Source: Escherichia coli
GTDB lineage: Bacteria; Pseudomonadota; Gammaproteobacteria; Enterobacterales; Enterobacteriaceae
Direction: 5' to 3' (one strand)
Assembly (NCBI RefSeq): GCF_041886205.1
Contig: NZ_CP169029.1
Length of the DNA: 64,000 nucleotides
Position numbers and translations under genes: made by a program. Positions 2,322-64,000 of this stretch are shown one piece after another. Position 1 is the first letter of the stretch. Each line of letters starts with the position of its first letter. The notes under the pieces were generated by a model that did no database searches, had not been told where the DNA came from, and was given only the letters and a program-made list of their open reading frames with translations.

Positions 2322-4370
2322 ATGAACATGTTTTTTAGGCTTACCGCGTTAGCTGGCCTGCTTGCAATAGCAGGCCAGACCTTCGCTGTAGAAGATATCA
2401 CGCGTGCTGATCAAATTCCGGTATTAAAGGAAGAGACGCAGCATGCGACGGTAAGTGAGCGCGTAACGTCGCGCTTCACCCGTTCTCATTATCGCCAGTT
2501 CGACCTCGATCAGGCATTTTCGGCCAAAATCTTTGACCGCTACCTGAATCTGCTCGATTACAGCCACAATGTGCTGCTGGCAAGCGATGTTGAACAGTTC
2601 GCGAAAAAGAAAACCGAGTTAGGCGATGAATTGCGTTCAGGCAAACTCGACGTTTTCTACGATCTCTACAATCTGGCGCAAAAGCGCCGTTTTGAACGTT
2701 ACCAGTACGCTTTGTCGGTACTGGAAAAGCCGATGGATTTCACCGGCAACGACACTTATAACCTTGACCGCAGCAAAGCGCCCTGGCCGAAAAACGAGGC
2801 TGAGTTGAACGCGCTGTGGGACAGTAAAGTCAAATTCGACGAGTTAAGCCTGAAGCTGGCAGGAAAAACGGATAAAGAAATTCGTGAAACCCTGACACGC
2901 CGCTACAAATTTGCCATTCGTCGTCTGGCGCAAACCAACAGCGAAGATGTTTTCTCGCTGGCAATGACGGCGTTTGCGCGTGAAATCGACCCGCATACCA
3001 ACTATCTTTCCCCGCGTAATACCGAACAGTTCAACACTGAAATGAGTTTGTCGCTGGAAGGTATTGGCGCAGTGCTGCAAATGGATGATGACTACACCGT
3101 TATCAATTCGATGGTGGCAGGTGGTCCGGCAGCGAAGAGTAAAGCTATCAGCGTTGGTGACAAAATTGTCGGTGTTGGTCAAACAGGCAAGCCGATGGTT
3201 GACGTGATTGGCTGGCGTCTTGATGATGTGGTTGCCTTAATTAAAGGGCCGAAGGGCAGTAAAGTTCGTCTGGAAATTTTACCTGCTGGTAAAGGGACCA
3301 AGACCCGCACTGTAACATTGACCCGTGAACGTATTCGTCTCGAAGACCGCGCGGTTAAAATGTCGGTGAAGACCGTCGGTAAAGAGAAAGTCGGCGTGCT
3401 GGATATTCCGGGCTTCTATGTGGGTTTGACAGACGATGTCAAAGTTCAACTGCAGAAACTGGAAAAACAGAATGTCAGCAGTGTGATCATCGACCTGCGT
3501 AGCAATGGCGGTGGGGCGTTGACCGAAGCGGTATCGCTCTCCGGTCTGTTTATTCCTGCGGGTCCCATTGTTCAGGTCCGCGATAACAACGGCAAGGTTC
3601 GTGAAGACAGCGATACCGACGGGCAGGTGTTCTTTAAAGGCCCGCTGGTGGTACTGGTTGACCGTTTCAGTGCTTCGGCTTCAGAAATCTTTGCCGCGGC
3701 AATGCAGGATTACGGTCGTGCGCTGGTTGTTGGTGAACCGACGTTTGGTAAAGGCACCGTTCAGCAATACCGTTCATTGAACCGTATTTACGATCAGATG
3801 TTACGTCCTGAATGGCCAGCGCTGGGTTCTGTGCAGTACACGATCCAGAAATTCTATCGCGTTAACGGCGGCAGTACGCAACGTAAAGGCGTAACGCCAG
3901 ACATCATCATGCCGACGGGTAATGAAGAAACGGAAACGGGTGAGAAATTCGAAGATAACGCGCTGCCGTGGGATAGCATTGATGCCGCGACTTATGTGAA
4001 ATCAGGCGATTTAACGGCCTTTGGGCCGGAGCTGCTGAAGGAACATAATGCGCGTATCGCGAAAGATCCTGAGTTCCAGAACATCATGAAGGATATCGCG
4101 CGCTTCAACGCTATGAAGGACAAGCGCAATATCGTTTCTCTGAACTACGCTGTGCGTGAGAAAGAGAATAATGAAGATGATGCGACGCGTCTGGCGCGTT
4201 TGAACGAACGCTTTAAACGCGAAGGTAAACCGGAGTTGAAGAAGCTGGATGATCTACCGAAAGATTACCAGGAGCCGGATCCTTATCTGGATGAGACGGT
4301 GAATATCGCACTCGATCTGGCGAAGCTTGAAAAAGCCAGACCCGCGGAACAACCCGCTCCCGTCAAGTAA
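2322..4370 (+). CDS. prc: tail-specific periplasmic protease Prc (Tsp)
   Basis: ORF track 2274..4370; signal peptide MNMFFRLTALAGLLAIAGQTFA begins at internal ATG about 2322; PDZ and S41 peptidase regions recognised. Confidence 0.9.
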   Translation: MNMFFRLTALAGLLAIAGQTFAVEDITRADQIPVLKEETQHATVSERVTSRFTRSHYRQFDLDQAFSAKIFDRYLNLLDYSHNVLLASDVEQFAKKKTELGDELRSGKLDVFYDLYNLAQKRRFERYQYALSVLEKPMDFTGNDTYNLDRSKAPWPKNEAELNALWDSKVKFDELSLKLAGKTDKEIRETLTRRYKFAIRRLAQTNSEDVFSLAMTAFAREIDPHTNYLSPRNTEQFNTEMSLSLEGIGAVLQMDDDYTVINSMVAGGPAAKSKAISVGDKIVGVGQTGKPMVDVIGWRLDDVVALIKGPKGSKVRLEILPAGKGTKTRTVTLTRERIRLEDRAVKMSVKTVGKEKVGVLDIPGFYVGLTDDVKVQLQKLEKQNVSSVIIDLRSNGGGALTEAVSLSGLFIPAGPIVQVRDNNGKVREDSDTDGQVFFKGPLVVLVDRFSASASEIFAAAMQDYGRALVVGEPTFGKGTVQQYRSLNRIYDQMLRPEWPALGSVQYTIQKFYRVNGGSTQRKGVTPDIIMPTGNEETETGEKFEDNALPWDSIDAATYVKSGDLTAFGPELLKEHNARIAKDPEFQNIMKDIARFNAMKDKRNIVSLNYAVREKENNEDDATRLARLNERFKREGKPELKKLDDLPKDYQEPDPYLDETVNIALDLAKLEKARPAEQPAPVK

Positions 4371-4372
4371 TA

Positions 4373-4406
4373 TCAATCAGGCACAAGAAATTGTGCCTGA
4401 TTTTTT
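4373..4406 (+). terminator. intrinsic terminator after prc
   Basis: GC hairpin (caggcacaa/ttgtgcctg) followed by T-run directly after prc stop. Confidence 0.5.
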
Positions 4407-4475
4407 AACAGCGGCAAGATGCCGTAAATCAGATGCTACAAAATGTAAAGTTGTGTCTTTCTGGTGACTTACGCA

Positions 4476-4515
4476 CTATCCAGACTTGAAAATAGTCGCG
4501 TAACCCATACGATGT
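4476..4515 (+). promoter_or_regulatory. candidate sigma32-type heat-shock promoter of htpX
   Basis: cTTGAAA then about 12-13 nt then CCCATAc, roughly 50-80 nt upstream of htpX ATG; htpX is a known heat-shock gene. Confidence 0.4.
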
Positions 4516-4561
4516 GGGTATCGCATATTGCGTTTTGTTAAACTGAGGTAAAAAGAAAATT

Positions 4562-5443
4562 ATGATGCGAATCGCGCTCTTCCTGCTAACGAACCTGGCC
4601 GTAATGGTCGTTTTCGGGCTGGTACTGAGCCTGACAGGGATACAGTCGAGCAGCGTTCAGGGGCTGATGATCATGGCCTTGCTGTTCGGTTTTGGTGGTT
4701 CCTTCGTTTCGCTTCTGATGTCCAAATGGATGGCATTACGATCTGTTGGCGGGGAAGTGATCGAGCAACCGCGTAACGAAAGGGAACGTTGGCTGGTCAA
4801 TACTGTAGCAACCCAGGCTCGTCAGGCAGGGATCGCTATGCCGCAAGTGGCTATCTACCATGCGCCGGACATCAACGCTTTTGCAACCGGTGCGCGCCGT
4901 GATGCCTCTCTGGTTGCTGTCAGCACCGGTTTGCTGCAGAACATGAGCCCGGATGAAGCCGAGGCGGTAATTGCTCACGAAATCAGCCACATCGCCAATG
5001 GTGATATGGTTACCATGACGCTGATTCAGGGCGTGGTGAACACCTTCGTTATCTTTATTTCCCGTATTCTGGCGCAGCTTGCCGCGGGTTTTATGGGCGG
5101 AAATCGTGATGAAGGTGAAGAGAGCAACGGCAACCCGCTGATCTACTTTGCGGTTGCAACGGTTCTGGAACTGGTGTTTGGTATTCTGGCGAGCATTATC
5201 ACCATGTGGTTCTCGCGTCATCGTGAATTCCATGCTGATGCCGGTTCGGCAAAACTGGTTGGTCGCGAGAAAATGATTGCCGCGCTGCAGCGCCTGAAAA
5301 CCAGCTATGAACCGCAAGAAGCAACCAGCATGATGGCTTTCTGCATTAACGGTAAGTCGAAATCGCTCAGTGAGTTGTTCATGACTCACCCGCCGCTGGA
5401 TAAACGAATTGAAGCTCTGCGTACGGGTGAATACCTGAAGTAA
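4562..5443 (+). CDS. htpX: membrane-bound zinc metalloprotease HtpX
   Basis: ORF track 293 aa; HEISH zinc-binding motif; N-terminal TM segments. Confidence 0.9.
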
Positions 5444-5458
5444 TATGAAGTAAATACT

Positions 5459-54092: not shown

Positions 54093-55388
<1,296 letters not shown>

Positions 55389-55440
55389 CTACATTTGCCA
55401 ACTGTATGCTACGCCTGTGTTGCCGCTTCTCAGGCCCACG

Positions 55441-55475
55441 GTTCGCTGTCGTTGTAGGCCCGGTAACATGTGTAC
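55441..55475 (-). terminator. hairpin (possible attenuator) between yeaG and yeaH
   Basis: ggcccggtacacatgttaccgggcc palindrome in the 112 bp yeaG-yeaH spacer. Confidence 0.45.
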
Positions 55476-55488
55476 CGGGCCAGGGTTG

Positions 55489-57423
55489 TTAAGACGATTT
55501 ACGTACGCGCAAATACCATTCGCACAGTAAACGCACCTGTTTACGGGTGTAGCCTTTTTCCATCATACGGTCGACAAAGTCGTCGTGTTTCTTCTGCTCG
55601 TCGGTTGACGTTTTGGCGTTAAACGAGATAACCGGCAACAGCTCCTCGGTATTGGAGAACATTTTCTTCTCGATGACCGTGCGCAGTTTTTCATAGCTGG
55701 TCCAGTTCGGATTGCGTCCGCTGTTATTCGCTCTGGCGCGCAGTACGAAGTTAACAATCTCGTTGCGGAAATCTTTTGGATTACTGATCCCCGCCGGTTT
55801 CTCGATTTTCTCCAGCTCGGCGTTAAGAGACTCGCGGTCAAACAGCTGCCCGGTATCCGGATCGCGATACTCCTGATCCTGAATCCAGAAATCCGCGTAG
55901 GTAACATAACGGTCGAAAATGTTTTGCCCATATTCGGAATAGGATTCAAGGTAGGCCGTCTGGATCTCTTTGCCGATAAACTCGGCATATTTCGGGATCA
56001 GATAACCTTTCAGGAACTCCAGATAGCGTTCTGCCTGCTCTTGTGGGAACTGCTCGCGCTCAATCTGCTGTTCCAGGACGTAGAACAGATGGACCGGGTT
56101 TGCTGCCACTTCTACATGATCGAAGTTGAACACGCGGGAGAGGATCTTAAACGCAAAACGCGTCGACAGACCGTTCATCCCTTCATCGACACCGGCGTAG
56201 TCACGATATTCCTGATACGACTTGGCTTTGGGATCGGTGTCTTTCAGACTTTCGCCATCATAAACCCGCATCTTTGAATAAATGCTGGAGTTTTCTGGCT
56301 CTTTCAGGCGCGAAAGAATGGAAAAACGTGACAGTGTTTCGAGCGTGCCAGGGGCGCATGGGGCGTGAGTCAATTCACTGTGATTAAGCAATTTCTCGTA
56401 GATTTTGATCTCTTCGGAAATGCGCAAGCAATACGGCACCTTCACGATGTAAACACGATCGAGGAAGGCTTCGTTGTTTTTGTTATTACGGAAAGTGACC
56501 CATTCGGACTCGTTCGAGTGTGCGAGAATAATCCCGTTGAACGGCAGGGCGGAGATACCTTCCGTCCCGTTGTAGTTACCTTCCTGAGTGGCGGTTAACA
56601 AGGGATGCAGCACTTTAATCGGTGCTTTAAACATCTCAACGAATTCCATGATCCCCTGATTGGCGCGGCACAGCGCACCGGAATAGCCGTAGGCGTCCGG
56701 GTCATTCTGCGCGTAGTGTTCGAGTTTACGAATATCGACTTTCCCAACCAGCGCGGAGATGTCCTGGTTGTTCTCATCGCCGGGTTCCGTTTTGGCGATA
56801 GCAATTTGTTGCAGAATTGACGGCCAGACCTTCACTACCCGGAACTTAGTGATATCGCCACCAAATTCATGCAGGCGTTTTGCCGCCCACGGCGACATGA
56901 TGGTGCCGAGATAACGGCGAGGAATGCCATACTCTTTTTCCAGAATCTGCGCATCTTCCTGCGGATTGAAAAGACAGAACGGATGATCGTTGACCGGGCT
57001 ACGCTCACCGTTCGCGCTCAATACATAAATCGGTACGAGCTGCATTAATGATTTCAGTCGCTCAGCAAGCGATGATTTACCCCCACCCACAGGCCCCAGC
57101 AGATACAGGATTTGTTTCTTCTCTTCCAGCCCCTGAGCCGCGTGTTTCAGATAAGAGACAATCTGTTCAATCGCGTCTTCCATGCCGTAAAACTCTTCAA
57201 ACGCCGGATAACGTGCAATGACCCGGTTAGAAAAGAGTCGAGAAAGTCTGGGTTCCTGGGCTGTATCGACCATGACAGGCTCACCGATAGCCATCAATAG
57301 CCGCTCAGCCGCGTTGGCATAAGCACTGCGATCTTGCCGACAAGTGGTAAGAAACTCCTGCAGTGTGAACTCTTCGTCCTTGGCAGCTTCATATCGCTGG
57401 CGATAGTGATCGAATATATTCAT
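55489..57423 (-). CDS. yeaG: PrkA-family serine protein kinase YeaG
   Basis: ORF track 644 aa; P-loop LLGPVGGGKSSLAERL; PrkA architecture. Confidence 0.9.
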   Translation of the reverse strand: MNIFDHYRQRYEAAKDEEFTLQEFLTTCRQDRSAYANAAERLLMAIGEPVMVDTAQEPRLSRLFSNRVIARYPAFEEFYGMEDAIEQIVSYLKHAAQGLEEKKQILYLLGPVGGGKSSLAERLKSLMQLVPIYVLSANGERSPVNDHPFCLFNPQEDAQILEKEYGIPRRYLGTIMSPWAAKRLHEFGGDITKFRVVKVWPSILQQIAIAKTEPGDENNQDISALVGKVDIRKLEHYAQNDPDAYGYSGALCRANQGIMEFVEMFKAPIKVLHPLLTATQEGNYNGTEGISALPFNGIILAHSNESEWVTFRNNKNNEAFLDRVYIVKVPYCLRISEEIKIYEKLLNHSELTHAPCAPGTLETLSRFSILSRLKEPENSSIYSKMRVYDGESLKDTDPKAKSYQEYRDYAGVDEGMNGLSTRFAFKILSRVFNFDHVEVAANPVHLFYVLEQQIEREQFPQEQAERYLEFLKGYLIPKYAEFIGKEIQTAYLESYSEYGQNIFDRYVTYADFWIQDQEYRDPDTGQLFDRESLNAELEKIEKPAGISNPKDFRNEIVNFVLRARANNSGRNPNWTSYEKLRTVIEKKMFSNTEELLPVISFNAKTSTDEQKKHDDFVDRMMEKGYTRKQVRLLCEWYLRVRKSS

Positions 57424-57858
57424 GGTATGCCGTCCTTTCGTTTTTTAGCACAGGTTAAGAGCCGTTCATATGAATAGTAGAGGCTCCCGGAAGAGGTAAA
57501 CTGAACGACGTCTCTTGCTAAAACACAGCAACTCTCATGCCATTTTATCGACGATGAGAACAACGTGCCCGGTGATACACCTTCAAAATTAAGCGTAGAT
57601 GGCAAATGGAAAACTTGCCTGCACGGCTTTCTTAATTTCAATGGCATATCAACAACTCATCCATAAATTTTGCATAATTAATGTAAAGACCAGGCTCGCC
57701 AGTAACGCTAAATTCATTTGGCTGTAAGCGCGGTGTCATCCGCGTCAGGAAAATTAAACAGTTACTTTAAAAAATGAAAACGTAAAAAGGTTGGGTTTCG
57801 ATGTATTGACGGGTAAACTTTGTCGCCCGCTAAACATTTGTTTAAGGAATGATTAATT

Positions 57859-58605
57859 GTGACCAAACTCAAACTTCTGGCACTTGGAGTGCTTATCGCA
57901 ACGTCTGCAGGCGTAGCGCACGCTGAAGGTAAATTTTCCCTGGGCGCAGGCGTAGGTGTCGTTGAACACCCATATAAAGATTACGATACCGATGTTTACC
58001 CAGTACCGGTAATCAACTATGAAGGCGATAACTTCTGGTTCCGTGGCTTAGGTGGTGGTTACTACCTGTGGAATGACGCAACGGATAAACTTTCAATTAC
58101 CGCTTACTGGTCGCCGCTTTACTTTAAAGCGAAAGACAGTGGCGATCACCAAATGCGTCACCTGGATGACCGTAAGAGCACCATGATGGCTGGTCTGTCT
58201 TATGCTCACTTTACCCAGTACGGTTACCTGCGTACCACCCTGGCTGGCGATACCCTGGATAACAGCAACGGCATCGTCTGGGATATGGCCTGGTTGTATC
58301 GTTACACCAACGGTGGCCTGACCGTGACTCCGGGTATTGGTGTGCAGTGGAACAGCGAAAACCAGAACGAATACTATTATGGCGTATCGCGCAAAGAGTC
58401 CGCTCGCAGCGGTCTGCGTGGCTATAACCCGAACGACAGCTGGAGCCCTTACCTGGAGCTGAGCGCCAGCTACAACTTCCTCGGCGACTGGAGTGTTTAC
58501 GGTACCGCACGCTACACCCGTCTGTCTGATGAAGTTACTGACAGCCCGATGGTGGATAAATCCTGGACTGGCCTGATTTCTACCGGGATCACCTACAAAT
58601 TCTGA
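57859..58605 (+). CDS. mipA: MltA-interacting outer-membrane protein MipA
   Basis: ORF track 248 aa; signal peptide; beta-barrel-like C-terminal ...GITYKF. Confidence 0.9.
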   Translation: MTKLKLLALGVLIATSAGVAHAEGKFSLGAGVGVVEHPYKDYDTDVYPVPVINYEGDNFWFRGLGGGYYLWNDATDKLSITAYWSPLYFKAKDSGDHQMRHLDDRKSTMMAGLSYAHFTQYGYLRTTLAGDTLDNSNGIVWDMAWLYRYTNGGLTVTPGIGVQWNSENQNEYYYGVSRKESARSGLRGYNPNDSWSPYLELSASYNFLGDWSVYGTARYTRLSDEVTDSPMVDKSWTGLISTGITYKF

Positions 58606-58638
58606 TAATGCATCTTTCCAGGGCATTTTGTGCATAAA

Positions 58639-58662
58639 AACAGGGCGTCACGCCCTGTTTTG
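58639..58662 (+). terminator. intrinsic terminator after mipA
   Basis: aaaacagggcgtcacgccctgtttt. Confidence 0.5.
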
Positions 58663-58694
58663 CATTACGGTGGTGCAATACCTGGGAGGAAACA

Positions 58695-59549
58695 ATGCAA
58701 CAAAAAATGATTCAATTTAGTGGCGATGTCTCACTGCCAGCCGTAGGGCAGGGAACATGGTATATGGGCGAAGATGCCAGTCAGCGCAAAACAGAAGTTG
58801 CTGCACTACGCGCGGGCATTGAACTCGGTTTAACCCTCATTGATACCGCCGAAATGTATGCCGATGGCGGTGCCGAAAAGGTGGTTGGGGAAGCATTAAC
58901 CGGTCTGCGAGAGAAGGTCTTTCTCGTCTCTAAAGTCTATCCGTGGAATGCTGGCGGGCAAAAAGCGATAAATGCATGCGAAGCCAGTTTACGCCGTCTC
59001 AATACTGATTATCTCGATCTTTACTTATTACACTGGTCTGGCAGTTTCGCTTTTGAAGAGACTGTCGCAGCGATGGAAAAATTGATCGCCCAGGGAAAAA
59101 TCCGCCGCTGGGGCGTTTCTAACCTTGATTATGCTGATATGCAGGAACTCTGGCAGCTGCCGGGGGGAAATCAGTGTGCCACTAATCAGGTGCTTTACCA
59201 TCTCGGTTCACGAGGAATTGAGTACGATCTACTCCCCTGGTGCCAGCAACAGCAGATGCCGGTGATGGCTTACAGTCCGTTAGCCCAGGCCGGGCGGTTG
59301 CGCAATGGACTGTTAAAAAACGCGGTAGTCAACGAAATTGCACATGCTCACAATATCAGCGCGGCACAAGTATTGTTGGCGTGGGTGATCAGTCATCAGG
59401 GTGTGATGGCGATTCCAAAAGCGGCCACGATTGCCCATGTCCAACAAAATGCGGCTGTGCTTGAGGTCGAACTTTCTTCAGCGGAATTAGCTATGCTGGA
59501 TAAGGCATATCCGGCACCAAAAGGAAAAACTGCGCTGGATATGGTGTGA
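58695..59549 (+). CDS. yeaE: aldo-keto reductase YeaE
   Basis: ORF track 284 aa; AKR family. Confidence 0.9.
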   Translation: MQQKMIQFSGDVSLPAVGQGTWYMGEDASQRKTEVAALRAGIELGLTLIDTAEMYADGGAEKVVGEALTGLREKVFLVSKVYPWNAGGQKAINACEASLRRLNTDYLDLYLLHWSGSFAFEETVAAMEKLIAQGKIRRWGVSNLDYADMQELWQLPGGNQCATNQVLYHLGSRGIEYDLLPWCQQQQMPVMAYSPLAQAGRLRNGLLKNAVVNEIAHAHNISAAQVLLAWVISHQGVMAIPKAATIAHVQQNAAVLEVELSSAELAMLDKAYPAPKGKTALDMV

Positions 59550-59552
59550 TGT

Positions 59553-59587
59553 TGTGTGCCGGATGCATCGCACCCGGCACACAACAT
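59553..59587. terminator. stem-loop between convergent yeaE and yeaD (REP-like)
   Basis: gttgtgtgccgg-atgcatcgcac-ccggcacacaac, perfect 12 bp inverted repeat. Confidence 0.45.
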
Positions 59588-59596
59588 TAACGTAAA

Positions 59597-60481
59597 TTAA
59601 CGTTTCGCAACGCGAATGGATTGCGCCAGATGTGCAGGTTTCTCTTTGGTCACTTTTTGCGTTTCTGAAGCGTAAGCCGTTTCTACACAAACAAATGTTT
59701 TGTAGCCATCATCCGGCATATCGCCCATGCTAATTGAAAGCGCCGGTCCCGGGTTCCAGCCGACAACGTTCAGATGATGCTGGTGGCCTACGGCGATAAT
59801 ACGATTCAGCGCTTCATCATTAATCACGCTGCAATCTTGTGGATTCAGATACACGCGATCGGTACGGTCAGGGAAGGTCTGAATACCATCGGTCAGTACA
59901 TCTTCTTTCGCGTCATTCACTTTATCAATGAAGCGATCGCCCAGCCCACTGACGCTTACCTTAGCGATATCACCCACGTTAAAGTAGGTATGCAGGGCAG
60001 AGGTGGTTTCAAATTCGCCATGTGATTCAAGATCGATTTCACAAGTTTTACCCACGCGGAAATGCGCTAACAGCGTAAAGTCGTGCGGCCAGAATTTTTT
60101 CGTCTCTTCGCTTTGCGTCAATTCAAAAGTCAGCGCTACGCCATCAGCATCTTCATGATGTGATTTCAGCGTCCACGGCAGGTTGCGGGCAAAACCGTGC
60201 GCAGGCAGACCTTGTTGTGCCGCCGGACCAAACCACGGCCAGCAAACCGGTACGCCACCGCGAATAGCGACGCCATTTTTGAACGGTGTGTTGTTGCTCA
60301 ACCACAGAACTTCTTCTTCACCCGCAGGTTTCCACGAGAGAAGGTGTGCGCCCTGTAATGCAAAAGAGGCTTTTACCTGGGGATGATCGACCACAATGAG
60401 GTCCAGTTCATCCAGTTTACGACGGGAGAGGACAGGGGAGATTTGTTCGATGACCGGAAGGGCAAAAATTTTCTTAATCAT
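59597..60481 (-). CDS. yeaD: glucose-6-phosphate 1-epimerase YeaD
   Basis: ORF track 59597..60502; start moved to MIKKIFALPVIEQ giving 294 aa; aldose-1-epimerase-like. Confidence 0.85.
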   Translation of the reverse strand: MIKKIFALPVIEQISPVLSRRKLDELDLIVVDHPQVKASFALQGAHLLSWKPAGEEEVLWLSNNTPFKNGVAIRGGVPVCWPWFGPAAQQGLPAHGFARNLPWTLKSHHEDADGVALTFELTQSEETKKFWPHDFTLLAHFRVGKTCEIDLESHGEFETTSALHTYFNVGDIAKVSVSGLGDRFIDKVNDAKEDVLTDGIQTFPDRTDRVYLNPQDCSVINDEALNRIIAVGHQHHLNVVGWNPGPALSISMGDMPDDGYKTFVCVETAYASETQKVTKEKPAHLAQSIRVAKR

Positions 60482-60525
60482 GACGCAGTCCTTTAACTTC
60501 ATTTTATCAGGTAAAAAAAAGAGCG

Positions 60526-60552
60526 ACCGAAGTCGCTCTTTTTAGATCACAG
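60526..60552 (-). terminator. intrinsic terminator after gapA
   Basis: aaaaagagcgac-cgaa-gtcgctcttttt hairpin flanked by A/T runs. Confidence 0.5.
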
Positions 60553-60564
60553 TGTCATCTCAAC

Positions 60565-61572
<1,008 letters not shown>

Positions 61573-61901
61573 CTATTTGTTAGTGAATAAAAGGTTGCCT
61601 GTAAAATTACAAAAACCTTACGCAGCGTCAAGCGGAATCGTGTCAATCATTGCGACAAATCAATCCTGTGCCTAAGCATTACGCGACTGACTCGCCTCAC
61701 TCTTCCTTTGGGCTTGAGACCACATGGGGTCGGCGCCCCGAATTTTAAAGGGCAATTACGATAAAAATGTGATTTTCATCACGATTTAGGTGCAGCCATT
61801 TCGTCGAGATCAAGTTTAGGACAAAATTTTGCCAGTTGGTGTTAATGTTTTGTTAGAATCAGTCACGTAATGTGAGCACGATTAAAGTGAGATGTGAGCA
61901 A

Positions 61902-62315
61902 ATGGCTAATAAACCTTCGGCAGAAGAACTGAAAAAAAATTTGTCCGAGATGCAGTTTTACGTGACGCAGAATCATGGGACAGAGCCGCCATTTACGGGT
62001 CGTTTACTGCATAACAAGCGTGACGGCGTATATCACTGTTTGATCTGCGATGCCCCGCTGTTTCATTCCCAAACCAAGTATGATTCCGGCTGTGGCTGGC
62101 CCAGTTTCTACGAACCGGTGAGTGAAGAATCCATTCGTTATATCAAAGACTTGTCACATGGAATGCAGCGCATAGAAATTCGTTGCGGTAACTGTGATGC
62201 CCATCTGGGGCATGTCTTCCCCGACGGGCCGCAGCCAACGGGTGAACGTTATTGTGTTAACTCTGCTTCTTTACGCTTCACTGATGGCGAAAACGGCGAA
62301 GAAATCAACGGTTGA
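61902..62315 (+). CDS. msrB: peptide methionine-(R)-sulfoxide reductase MsrB
   Basis: ORF track 61872..62315; start moved to [12 protein letters not shown] giving 137 aa; CxxC zinc motifs and catalytic RYCVNSA. Confidence 0.9.
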
Positions 62316-62356
62316 AAAAACGATTCAGCAACTTATTCCACAGGAGCGGAAAAATT

Positions 62357-62629
62357 ATGAATCTTGATGACATTATCAACAGCATGACGCCTGAGGTATA
62401 CCAGCGTTTGTCGACCGCCGTTGAACTGGGGAAATGGCCTGATGGCGTTGCGTTGACCGAGGAACAAAAAGAGAACTGCCTGCAACTGGTGATGCTGTGG
62501 CAAGCCCGCCATAATACCGAAGCACAGCATATGACAATTGACACAAATGGTCAGATGGTCATGAAGAGCAAACAGCAGTTAAAAGAAGATTTTGGTATCT
62601 CAGCAAAGCCTATTGCCATGTTTAAGTGA
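62357..62629 (+). CDS. yeaC: DUF1315 protein YeaC
   Basis: ORF track 62312..62629; start moved to MNLDDIINSMTPEV giving 90 aa. Confidence 0.8.
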   Translation: MNLDDIINSMTPEVYQRLSTAVELGKWPDGVALTEEQKENCLQLVMLWQARHNTEAQHMTIDTNGQMVMKSKQQLKEDFGISAKPIAMFK

Positions 62630-62735
62630 ATGAGTTATCTAGTATTTAAGCCTGTTATTAAGGGAGGGCAAATATACTTGTTCGGACGTCGTGTTTTAGC
62701 TGCAAGTAGGTTAAATGCAACACTGACAAGTATTA

Positions 62736-62772
62736 TCTGGCCTACAATGTCATTGAGGAAATGTAGGCCAGA
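62736..62772. repeat. 11 bp perfect inverted repeat with 15 nt loop between yeaC and pncA (REP-like, GGCCTAC)
   Basis: tctggcctaca-atgtcattgaggaa-tgtaggccaga. Confidence 0.4.
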
Positions 62773-62789
62773 GATGAATTCAACTAAAA

Positions 62790-63431
62790 TTACCCCTGCG
62801 TCTCTTCCCAGTCTGCCAGCGTATATAGCGTTGCCCCAGCTGCTGACATCTCCATAAACGCGTGCGCACTGTCCTGGGGCTGGATATTCACGCCACGACA
62901 ACCATCGGTAATCACGTTTACCTTATAACCTAACTGTAACGCGTCCAGCACGGTAAACTTCACGCAATAGTCAGTAGCCAGGCCCATAACGATCAATTCA
63001 TCGATTTCATGATCGCGTAACCAGTCATCGAGAGAGGTTTTCTGCCGACGGCCGTTATCAAAAAAGGCACTGTAACTGTCAACTAAAGGATTTTCGCCTT
63101 TATGGAACACCGCTGCGATCGCTTTTTGGTTCAGTAACGGATGTAATTGTGCGCCTTCACTGTTCTGCACACAGTGATCTGGCCAGAAGGTTTGTGGCAA
63201 ACCGTCGAGTTGGCCTGGCGTATAAGGCTCTACACCGTGCTGACTGGCAAAACTGCCGTGATTCGCCGGATGCCAGTCCTGGCTGGCGATAACCGCTTCT
63301 CCGCGCGACTGGCACCAGTCAATAAGGCGGTTAGCGACATCCACCGTACTGTCACCTTCCGGCACGGCGAGCGCGCCACCAGCACAGAAATCATTTTGTA
63401 AATCGACCAGTAACAGGGCGCGAGGGGGCAT
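62790..63431 (-). CDS. pncA: nicotinamidase/pyrazinamidase PncA
   Basis: ORF track 62790..63449; start moved to MPPRALLLVDLQNDF giving 213 aa; isochorismatase-like fold. Confidence 0.9.
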   Translation of the reverse strand: MPPRALLLVDLQNDFCAGGALAVPEGDSTVDVANRLIDWCQSRGEAVIASQDWHPANHGSFASQHGVEPYTPGQLDGLPQTFWPDHCVQNSEGAQLHPLLNQKAIAAVFHKGENPLVDSYSAFFDNGRRQKTSLDDWLRDHEIDELIVMGLATDYCVKFTVLDALQLGYKVNVITDGCRGVNIQPQDSAHAFMEMSAAGATLYTLADWEETQG

Positions 63432-63441
63432 TGCAGTCTCC

Positions 63442-64000
63442 TTAATCATCCGGCGTCAGTTCGCCGCGCAGGTTTTGGCTCATGGCCTTGCGAATGTTTT
63501 CAGTATCCAGTTCCTGGCTAAGCAGGTAATGCAGTTTGGTTAACGTGGCTTCTACAGTCATATCTGCACCGCCAATAACGCCAGCATGGGCGAGGGCGTT
63601 ACCGGTGGCATAACCACCCATGTTCACTTTACCGGACATACATTGTGTCAGGTTAACCACCACAATACCGCGATCGCTGGCTTCTTGTAATTCCTGCAGG
63701 AAGGCTTTGTTTTGTGGCGCATTACCCACGCCATATGAGCGCAGAATCAATGCTTTCACCGGTTGGCGCAGAAAATTGCGCACGACGTCAGCAGAAATCC
63801 CTGGATAAATCGTCACTACGCCAATTGGTTGTGGCGTGATTGGATGAACGATTAATTCCCCTTCACCGTGCGGGGCGGGTGGCGTATTCAAACGACGAAT
63901 ATGGATACCAGCTTCCAGTAACGGAGGAAGGTTTGGAGAGGCAAACGCATCAAAACCATCGGCATGGGCTTTGGTAGTGCGGTTGCCGCGATACAATCGG
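63442..64000 (-). CDS. ansA: cytoplasmic L-asparaginase 1, C-terminal part only; gene continues beyond window end
   Basis: Minus-strand frame open to window edge; ORF track shows fragment from an internal TTG; ...VVNLTQCMSGKVNMGGYATGNALAHAGVIGGADMT... recognised. Confidence 0.9.
   Translation of the reverse strand, partial: RLYRGNRTTKAHADGFDAFASPNLPPLLEAGIHIRRLNTPPAPHGEGELIVHPITPQPIGVVTIYPGISADVVRNFLRQPVKALILRSYGVGNAPQNKAFLQELQEASDRGIVVVNLTQCMSGKVNMGGYATGNALAHAGVIGGADMTVEATLTKLHYLLSQELDTENIRKAMSQNLRGELTPDD

Follow-up and report, generated by a model that had tools for sequence, protein, structure and literature searches.

The htpX promoter of Escherichia coli: a core that looks like a sigma32/sigma70 composite, downstream of a conserved CpxR-like box

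Described systems and the htpX locus

The htpX gene of Escherichia coli is reportedly a member of both the sigma32 and the Cpx regulons, an assignment said to come from Kornitzer et al. 1991, Shimohata et al. 2002 and Nonaka et al. 2006; its rpoH dependence was reportedly described in Kornitzer 1991. The lon promoter resembles that of htpX in that its sigma32 octamer CCCCATAT (arranged as GTTGAAT-N13-CCCCATAT) overlaps a sigma70-type TATACT and in that it is seen in unstressed cells. The two differ in spacing, as lon has a 13-bp spacer and a 7/7 octamer, whereas 11 bp separate the -35 element of htpX from its best octamer match. CpxR boxes such as those of cpxP, ppiA, yccA and psd (GTAAA-N5-GTAAA) share with the proximal box upstream of htpX a direct-repeat design, a 5-bp gap and GTAAA as the first half; they also share a location <100 bp upstream of the start and strong Cpx-dependent activation. 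Unlike these boxes, the htpX box has GTCTT as its second half, of which only GT is kept, has a conserved GTT in the gap and scores 7.9 bits against a median of 13.5. OmpR sites (ompC and ompF, and csgD, where control is shared by CpxR and OmpR) are likewise comparable in their TTTAC-type half-sites, which recur every 10-11 bp on one face, and htpX shares with OmpR systems a ChIP-exo peak and a sequence that agrees with the OmpR repeat consensus at 14/17 positions. It departs from ompC and ompF in its weak occupancy (signal-to-noise, S/N, 1.89), in a reported repression that is maybe indirect, and in an OmpR-like half that is unconserved beyond close relatives. The published E. coli htpX promoter is this same locus, with the K-12 sequence bar base 4414 and the same regulators, and nothing essential differs.

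The DNA analysed here (the window) is a stretch of 64,000 nucleotides from E. coli with the gene order prc–htpX–yebQ, in which the transporter gene yebQ is convergent with htpX. HtpX matches the NCBIfam equivalog NF003965 ('protease HtpX') at 481.6 bits, the cut-off being 245, and Prc is likewise far over the cut-off of its NCBIfam model. The prc/htpX intergenic region is 191 bp long and differs from that of K-12 MG1655 at a single base, G4414 of the window being A in K-12. The stretch 4300-4700 is present at ≥99% identity in 5424 of 5426 complete E. coli genomes, where it is annotated prc/htpX. The features discussed below are collected in Table 1.

Table 1. Features of the prc–htpX region in window coordinates
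Feature	Position	Strand	Basis
prc	2322-4370	+	Open reading frame list and NCBIfam model match
prc terminator, hairpin AATCAGGCACAA/TTGTGCCTGATT then a T run	4375-4408	+	12 pairs; Enterobacteriaceae alignment
OmpR ChIP-exo footprint, peak P12 'htpX'	4408-4460		Seo et al. 2017, converted coordinates
Distal CpxR-like box, GCAAG-ATGCC-GTAAA	4414-4428	+	CpxR matrix, 10.55 bits
OmpR-like 17-mer, TTTACATTTTGTAGCAT	4433-4449	-	14/17 to GTTACATTTTGTTACAT
Proximal CpxR-like box, T-GTAAA-GTTGT-GTCTT, GTAAA at -75	4444-4459	+	CpxR matrix, 7.9 bits, and conservation
-35 element, cTTGAAA (-35 to -29)	4485-4491	+	sigma32 matrix, 12.2 bits
sigma32-type -10 match, aCCCATAc	4503-4510	+	5/7 to CCCCATNT, 7.1 bits
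sigma70-type -10, TACGAT (-12 to -7)	4508-4513	+	Consensus scan and conservation
Transcription start, A	4520	+	Published primary 5'-end map, Kim et al. 2012
5' untranslated leader, GAGG at 4545-4548	4520-4561	+	From mapped start
htpX coding sequence, 293 aa, zinc metalloprotease	4562-5443	+	Open reading frame, NCBIfam NF003965, RefSeq annotation

The hairpin of the prc terminator is kept throughout the Enterobacteriaceae in the alignment. Since prc is followed by a strong hairpin and a T run, htpX has its own promoter; the terminator insulates htpX from prc, and the sole htpX start lies downstream of it. The htpX promoter is a single, monocistronic stress promoter, and its identity was already known. 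At the other end of the window (approximately 55,000-64,000), collinearity with K-12 MG1655 at the prc-htpX offset is lost. As gapA lies ~6 kb farther from htpX than K-12 coordinates predict, the strain probably carries an insertion between htpX and gapA.

Two overlapping -10 readings in the core promoter

A single primary 5' end is listed for htpX by Kim et al. 2012 (PMC3415461), at position 1910642 on the minus strand and with 73 reads; the corresponding 5'UTR is 42 nt long, and its listed sequence ends ...GATGTGGGTA / ...CCCATACGATGTGGGTA. In the window this end is A4520. The cells used for that map were grown in M9 glucose medium without heat shock, and a heat-induced htpX start 1-2 nt upstream of A4520 would escape it. 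The accessible part of the Cappable-seq supplement (PMC4782308) has no entry near the htpX start.

For the sigma32 reading, a two-block matrix (CTTGAAA and CCCCATNT blocks) was derived from 16 MG1655 heat-shock promoters, those of dnaK P1, clpP, lon, htpG, clpB, grpE, ibpA, hslV, fxsA, groS, ybeD, ycjX, rlmE, prlC, cnoX and hspQ. The htpX site scores 19.3 bits in total, which is within the training range of 17.8-25.3 and is the highest value in the 64 kb. The initial annotation had proposed a sigma32 promoter from a cTTGAAA ... CCCATAc arrangement; both motifs are present, CCCATAc being at 4504-4510 and CCCAT separated from TTGAAA by 12 nt. The full octamer at 4503-4510 is ACCCATAC, whose ACCCATA core is also found in the clpP promoter. 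The -35 element matches sigma32 CTTGAAA at 7/7 positions and, as TTGAAA, sigma70 TTGACA at 5/6; judged by these matches, it could serve both sigma factors. The second-best sigma32 match of the window (17.6 bits) lies upstream of gapA, which is likewise a sigma32 ChIP-chip target (PMC2996942), and this runner-up validates the matrix. A simpler search for TTGAAA-N10-15-CCCAT gave 1 occurrence in the 64 kb (both strands) where ~0.31 is expected per window, a count that taken alone is weak evidence. The gapA-upstream match itself, CTTTAAA-N14-CCCCATGT at 61722-61750 on the minus strand, is ~150 nt upstream of gapA (60565-61569, minus strand; the gene was identified from its protein) and is probably the known gapA heat-shock promoter.

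The spacing at htpX differs from that of the reference sigma32 promoters. The consensus is quoted as CNCTTGAAA-N13-14-CCCCATNT (PMC3247240), and the spacer of the 16 reference promoters is 13 bp in 10 and 14 bp in 6, whereas CTTGAAA and the octamer are 11 bp apart at htpX. The octamer found there at 13-bp spacing is CCATACGA, a 3/7 match that brings the total to 8.1 bits, versus 19.3 at N11. Considering that the sigma32 octamer occupies -15 to -8 in the numbering of dnaK P1 (PMC10216364), a start would be expected ~8 nt after the octamer end, at 4518 for CCCATAC. The mapped A4520 is only 2 nt past this prediction, in a map made without heat shock, and the lon start in the same dataset (PMC3415461) lies 11 nt past its octamer; the mapped start is not incompatible with the -10/-35 pair of the initial annotation. 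One natural variant of the octamer is seen in E. coli SCPM-O-B-8794 (L003:1201 region), which has GCCATAC for CCCATAC (C4504G); its sigma32-type match drops to 15.8 bits from 19.3, and TACGAT is intact.

The same segment can be read as a sigma70 promoter. TACGAT lies 16 bp after TTGAAA, overlaps CCCATAc and has CC ahead of it at -15/-14. With 9/12 matches, TTGAAA-16-TACGAT was the sole sigma70-like promoter returned by a consensus scan of 4300-4700, and A4520 is exactly 7 nt after its end (T4513), as befits a sigma70 promoter.

Conservation was assessed with one genome per species, which yielded 80 htpX loci, 54 of them from Enterobacterales; the presence of TTGAA was required in choosing anchored loci. 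All of the Enterobacterales loci except that of an insect symbiont (53/54) have the -10 at a fixed distance and an upstream element, TGTAAAGTTnTGT, with the G of GTAAA 41 bp upstream of TTGAA. In E. coli this element occupies -76 to -64, and the sequence between the conserved blocks varies freely. Within the -10 region, the bases kept most often among the 53 loci are C4505 (48), C4506 (52), T4508 (51), A4509 (51), A4512 (45) and T4513 (47), whereas the A of CCCAT (A4507) is retained in only 33, the other 20 having C or T instead. The conserved pattern, CC-TA--AT, is that of a sigma70-type TAnnAT after CC, and CC is read by sigma32 as an extended -10 (PMC10216364). The best-scoring sigma32 register is N11 in 33/53 loci. 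Morganellaceae and Xenorhabdus have good sigma32 octamers (CCTTATTT, CCCCATTT) at N13/N14, in the frame of CC-TA--AT, and some Pasteurellaceae and Tolumonas have 13-bp-spaced sigma32 matches upstream of htpX. Within the species, 5409 of 5423 complete E. coli genomes share an unchanged core promoter (4484-4522), and the other 14 differ somewhere in it. An overlapping sigma70-type -10 is a refinement of the sigma32 reading that explains the mapped start and this conservation better.

Published occupancy data bear on both readings. Waldminghaus and Skarstad 2010 (PMC2996942) list htpX as a sigma32 ChIP-chip target (signal 1.6), with a probe midpoint that corresponds to window ~4485, and in Cho et al. 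2014 (PMC3923258) regions of RNA polymerase, sigma70 (SigD_786), sigma32 (SigH_194) and sigma38 (SigS) cover the htpX promoter. The Kim dataset (PMC3415461) lists both htpX and lon, the latter with its overlapping sigma70-type TATACT, and has no entry at the sigma32 promoter positions of dnaK P1, htpG, ybeD and ycjX. This distribution suggests, rather than proves, that the unstressed htpX transcript is made by sigma70. In sum, the htpX promoter looks like a sigma32/sigma70 composite.

An inverted repeat, CCCATA-cga-TGTGGG (4504-4518), extends over the -10 region as far as the start site. Citrobacter has a perfect version (CCCATACGATATGGG); the repeat is kept in Enterobacteriaceae but not in Yersinia or Serratia, and could be a binding site for a dimeric protein, or incidental. 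In the leader (4520-4561) no Rfam match was obtained at E≤1, and its folding was no better than that of shuffles (z = +0.81), so an RNA element or thermometer in the htpX leader was rejected. A weak hairpin (CGCA-uau-UGCG at 4522-4532, -2.7 kcal/mol) can form right where the transcript begins. Pairing-preserving variants (GCGC/GCGC, ACGC/GCGU, UCGC/GCGA) occur in Erwiniaceae, Hafniaceae and Edwardsiella, and the hairpin is missing from Yersinia, Serratia and Morganellaceae. As a functional element it was discarded as too weak and too patchily conserved.

Upstream pentamers, CpxR-like boxes and OmpR

Zhao et al. 2022 (PMC9600279) report a 25-fold increase of htpX in cpxA24 and a 38-fold increase with NlpE over-production (pnlpE), with a value of 0.6 once cpxR was also deleted; these measurements were made in K-12 BW25113. 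In a published paper htpX is termed a canonical E. coli CpxR target. The 41 accepted CpxR sites compiled in PMC9600279 do not include one at htpX, and none of the papers covered by a full-text literature search reports direct CpxR binding there. Given the sigma32 ChIP signal at the promoter, the published start and the strong Cpx induction, the interpretation of the initial annotation, a sigma32-type promoter in keeping with known htpX regulation and Cpx control, is supported in substance.

That annotation had also noted two GTAAA pentamers upstream of the promoter. Both exist, at 4424-4428 and 4445-4449, which is upstream of the range 4476-4561 stated in that annotation; the only GTAAA within that range (4548-4552) is in the ribosome-binding region. 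Its remark that their spacing is wider than the CpxR consensus proved correct, as they are 21 bp apart from start to start, with a gap of 16 bp rather than 5 bp. As a single CpxR box, which requires a gap of 5 (to 6) bp, the pair was rejected. A matrix made from the 41 accepted CpxR sites (PMC9600279 Table S1; median 13.5 bits, lower quartile 10.0) instead puts each GTAAA in a separate 15-mer, GCAAGATGCCGTAAA (4414-4428) versus GTAAAGTTGTGTCTT (4445-4459).

The distal box is the best CpxR-matrix match of the intergenic region and ranks 16 among 127,972 positions. All 41 accepted CpxR sites begin with G, whereas position 1 of this box, base 4414, is A in K-12, so that the distal box is poor in the K-12 sequence parental to BW25113. 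Conservation of the distal pentamer is seen, as GT[A/C]A[A/G] at -21/-22 from the proximal one, within Enterobacteriaceae only; beyond this family a second upstream site is missing or at a variable distance, and upstream CpxR-matrix matches of at least 8 bits occur in 11/53 loci, compared with 8.6% of shuffles, at no fixed position. Among E. coli genomes, the distal stretch 4398-4432 is identical in 4561 of 5422 (16% vary).

The proximal box (15-mer at -75 to -61 from the start) scores below the lower quartile of the accepted sites. In an alignment of 52 loci, its T, GTAAA, GTT and TGT reach the maximum of information content or come close to it; in the second half-site only GT is kept, and the gap bases GTT are conserved as well, a feature not foreseen by the CpxR consensus. 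Of 5423 E. coli genomes, 5278 carry the proximal stretch 4440-4474 unchanged (2.7% vary), and the element is missing in Vibrio, Aeromonas, Pasteurellaceae and Gilliamella loci. GTAAA-N5-GT shows no enrichment in the window (9 occurrences versus 7.1 expected from shuffles). The case for the pentamers rests on conservation; it is very strong for the proximal pentamer, and for the distal one it is confined to a single family. Considering that Cpx induction is strong in K-12 despite A4414, and that the distal region is the more variable one among E. coli genomes, we infer that the proximal box would be the main activator site and the distal box auxiliary at most.

Half-sites can be placed at 4414, 4424, 4435, 4445 and 4455, that is, at intervals of 10-11 bp on one helical face. 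Regulators of the OmpR/PhoB family typically have such a tandem arrangement of sites, and it accounts for the two GTAAA pentamers being ~two helical turns apart, not one. Between the proximal box and the -35 element lies a further semi-conserved block (4460-4473), T-rich and then ACTTA (tTtt.gt.actTa), which reads GTAAGTCACCAGAAA on the other strand in E. coli (4.3 bits with the CpxR matrix); it could represent another weak half-site or a contact for the alpha subunit. Elsewhere in the window, GTAATATGAAGTAAA at 5440-5454 on the plus strand overlaps the stop codon of htpX and lies between that gene and the convergent yebQ. At 12.8 bits it is among the eight best CpxR-matrix matches of the 64 kb, and may be due to chance.

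OmpR has also been located here. Seo et al. 2017 (PMC5438342, Suppl. Table 1) list a ChIP-exo peak at NC_000913.2 1910702-1910754 (centre -86, S/N 1.89, 'Rep'), which is weak; converted through the htpX ATG (1910600, window 4562), the footprint is 4408-4460 and spans both GTAAA pentamers. In an ompR deletion htpX is up 3.8-fold (PMC5438342). The Cpx genes spy and yebE are also up in this strain (PMC5438342), raising the possibility that the effect of OmpR on htpX is indirect, via Cpx activation. Within the footprint, TTTACATTTTGTAGCAT matches the published OmpR repeat GTTACATTTTGTTACAT with ≤3 mismatches, as no other sequence of the 64 kb does (0.20 expected); the site has both a repeat match and published OmpR occupancy. 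The TTTAC of this 17-mer is the opposite strand of the proximal GTAAA, and its GTAGC half is not conserved past a few genera.

Readings of the promoter and their meaning

We put the probability at roughly 80% that a sigma32/sigma70 composite core with its start at A4520, together with a CpxR-activated upstream array, explains the htpX promoter. On this composite reading, a single core promoter would use one -35 element, cTTGAAA, with two overlapping -10 sequences, to which we infer that different sigma factors are assigned. Sigma70 holoenzyme, aided by the upstream activator, would produce the transcript made without heat shock and under envelope stress, and sigma32 holoenzyme would engage the same -35 element in heat shock. 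For the latter we slightly favour, over the 11-bp register, one that shares A4509 as -11, which would restore a 13-bp spacing and use CC as the 'extended -10'. Upstream, half-sites of the OmpR/PhoB family would form a tandem array in which phosphorylated CpxR binds TGTAAAGTTnTGT and activates transcription; this element is most likely the CpxR~P activation site. The distal GTAAA would be a second, Escherichia-specific site, probably auxiliary. Several points count against this reading: the CpxR score of the proximal box is below the lower quartile of accepted sites, htpX is missing from the 41-site list, the start was mapped without heat shock and the OmpR peak is weak. As for the shared register, the score at N13 is 8.1 rather than 19.3 bits and CCCAT is kept in 33/53 loci, so that the N11 register may be the one under selection, and the short-spacer sigma32 reading may be used in E. 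coli and its closer relatives.

It is rather unlikely, in our judgement, that htpX has a plain sigma32 promoter in which CTTGAAA and (a)CCCATAc are read across the 11-bp spacer, with A4507 as -11 and TACGAT incidental. None of the 16 reference promoters has a spacer <13 bp, and C or T replaces A4507 in 20/53 loci where T4508, A4509 and T4513 are near-invariant. Such a promoter would nevertheless account for the top matrix score of the window, which is inside the range of true promoters, for the occupancy of the site by sigma32 in vivo, and for a CCCAT and a best register at N11 that are each found in 33/53 loci; the mapped start is only 2 nt off the prediction, and that of lon is even farther from its octamer. 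It leaves aside the strong Cpx induction of htpX without heat, the detection of htpX in M9 glucose medium when the dnaK P1, htpG, ybeD and ycjX positions have no entry, and the sigma70 region reported at the promoter. A related proposal, which we hold only tentatively and consider doubtful, is that the promoter is a conserved hybrid rather than a canonical sigma32 promoter, with a sigma32-type -35 and a 'CC' extended -10 fused to a sigma70-type TAnnAT core. CCCAT would then be 2 bp out of register and unread by sigma32, and GTAAA plus GTTnTGT would form a site where CpxR and OmpR compete on one helical face.

Both remaining alternatives concern the upstream region. The element might mainly serve OmpR, or another regulator of the OmpR family, with Cpx control being indirect or exerted elsewhere. 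The ChIP-exo peak over 4408-4460, the 3.8-fold rise of htpX in the ompR deletion and the sole OmpR-consensus match of the 64 kb at 4433-4449 are in line with this, as is the mediocre CpxR score of the proximal box. We regard it as improbable: it is GTAAA...GT that is conserved and not the GTAGC half, the peak is the weakest listed, spy and yebE are up in the same deletion, which may thus act through Cpx, and the Cpx induction of htpX is large and cpxR-dependent. Alternatively, both GTAAA pentamers could have arisen by chance, the spacer being AT-rich, and play no part in regulation, which we think very improbable. The fixed position of the proximal pentamer, 41 bp from the -35 element in 53/54 Enterobacterales loci with freely varying flanks, rules out a chance origin of 4445-4449. 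The points in favour of chance are that GTAAA-N5-GT is no commoner than in shuffles, that the pentamers are off the CpxR spacing, that 16% of E. coli genomes vary in the distal region and that upstream matches of ≥8 bits (11/53 loci, against 8.6% of shuffles) have no fixed position; outside Enterobacteriaceae, the distal pentamer may be due to chance.

Returning to the composite reading, what it adds to the known picture of htpX is the sigma70-type -10, the 11-bp versus 13-14-bp spacing and a phylogenetically defined upstream box. For annotation it carries a caution, namely that a high-scoring sigma32 match may have a spacing unused by any reference sigma32 promoter. Since htpX is long established in the sigma32 and Cpx regulons, the finding itself matters little. 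Its value is modest and lies in describing, at the level of sequence, how two stress pathways can come together on a single core promoter, through a shared -35 element, overlapping -10 readings and an upstream box held at a fixed 41 bp across the Enterobacterales.
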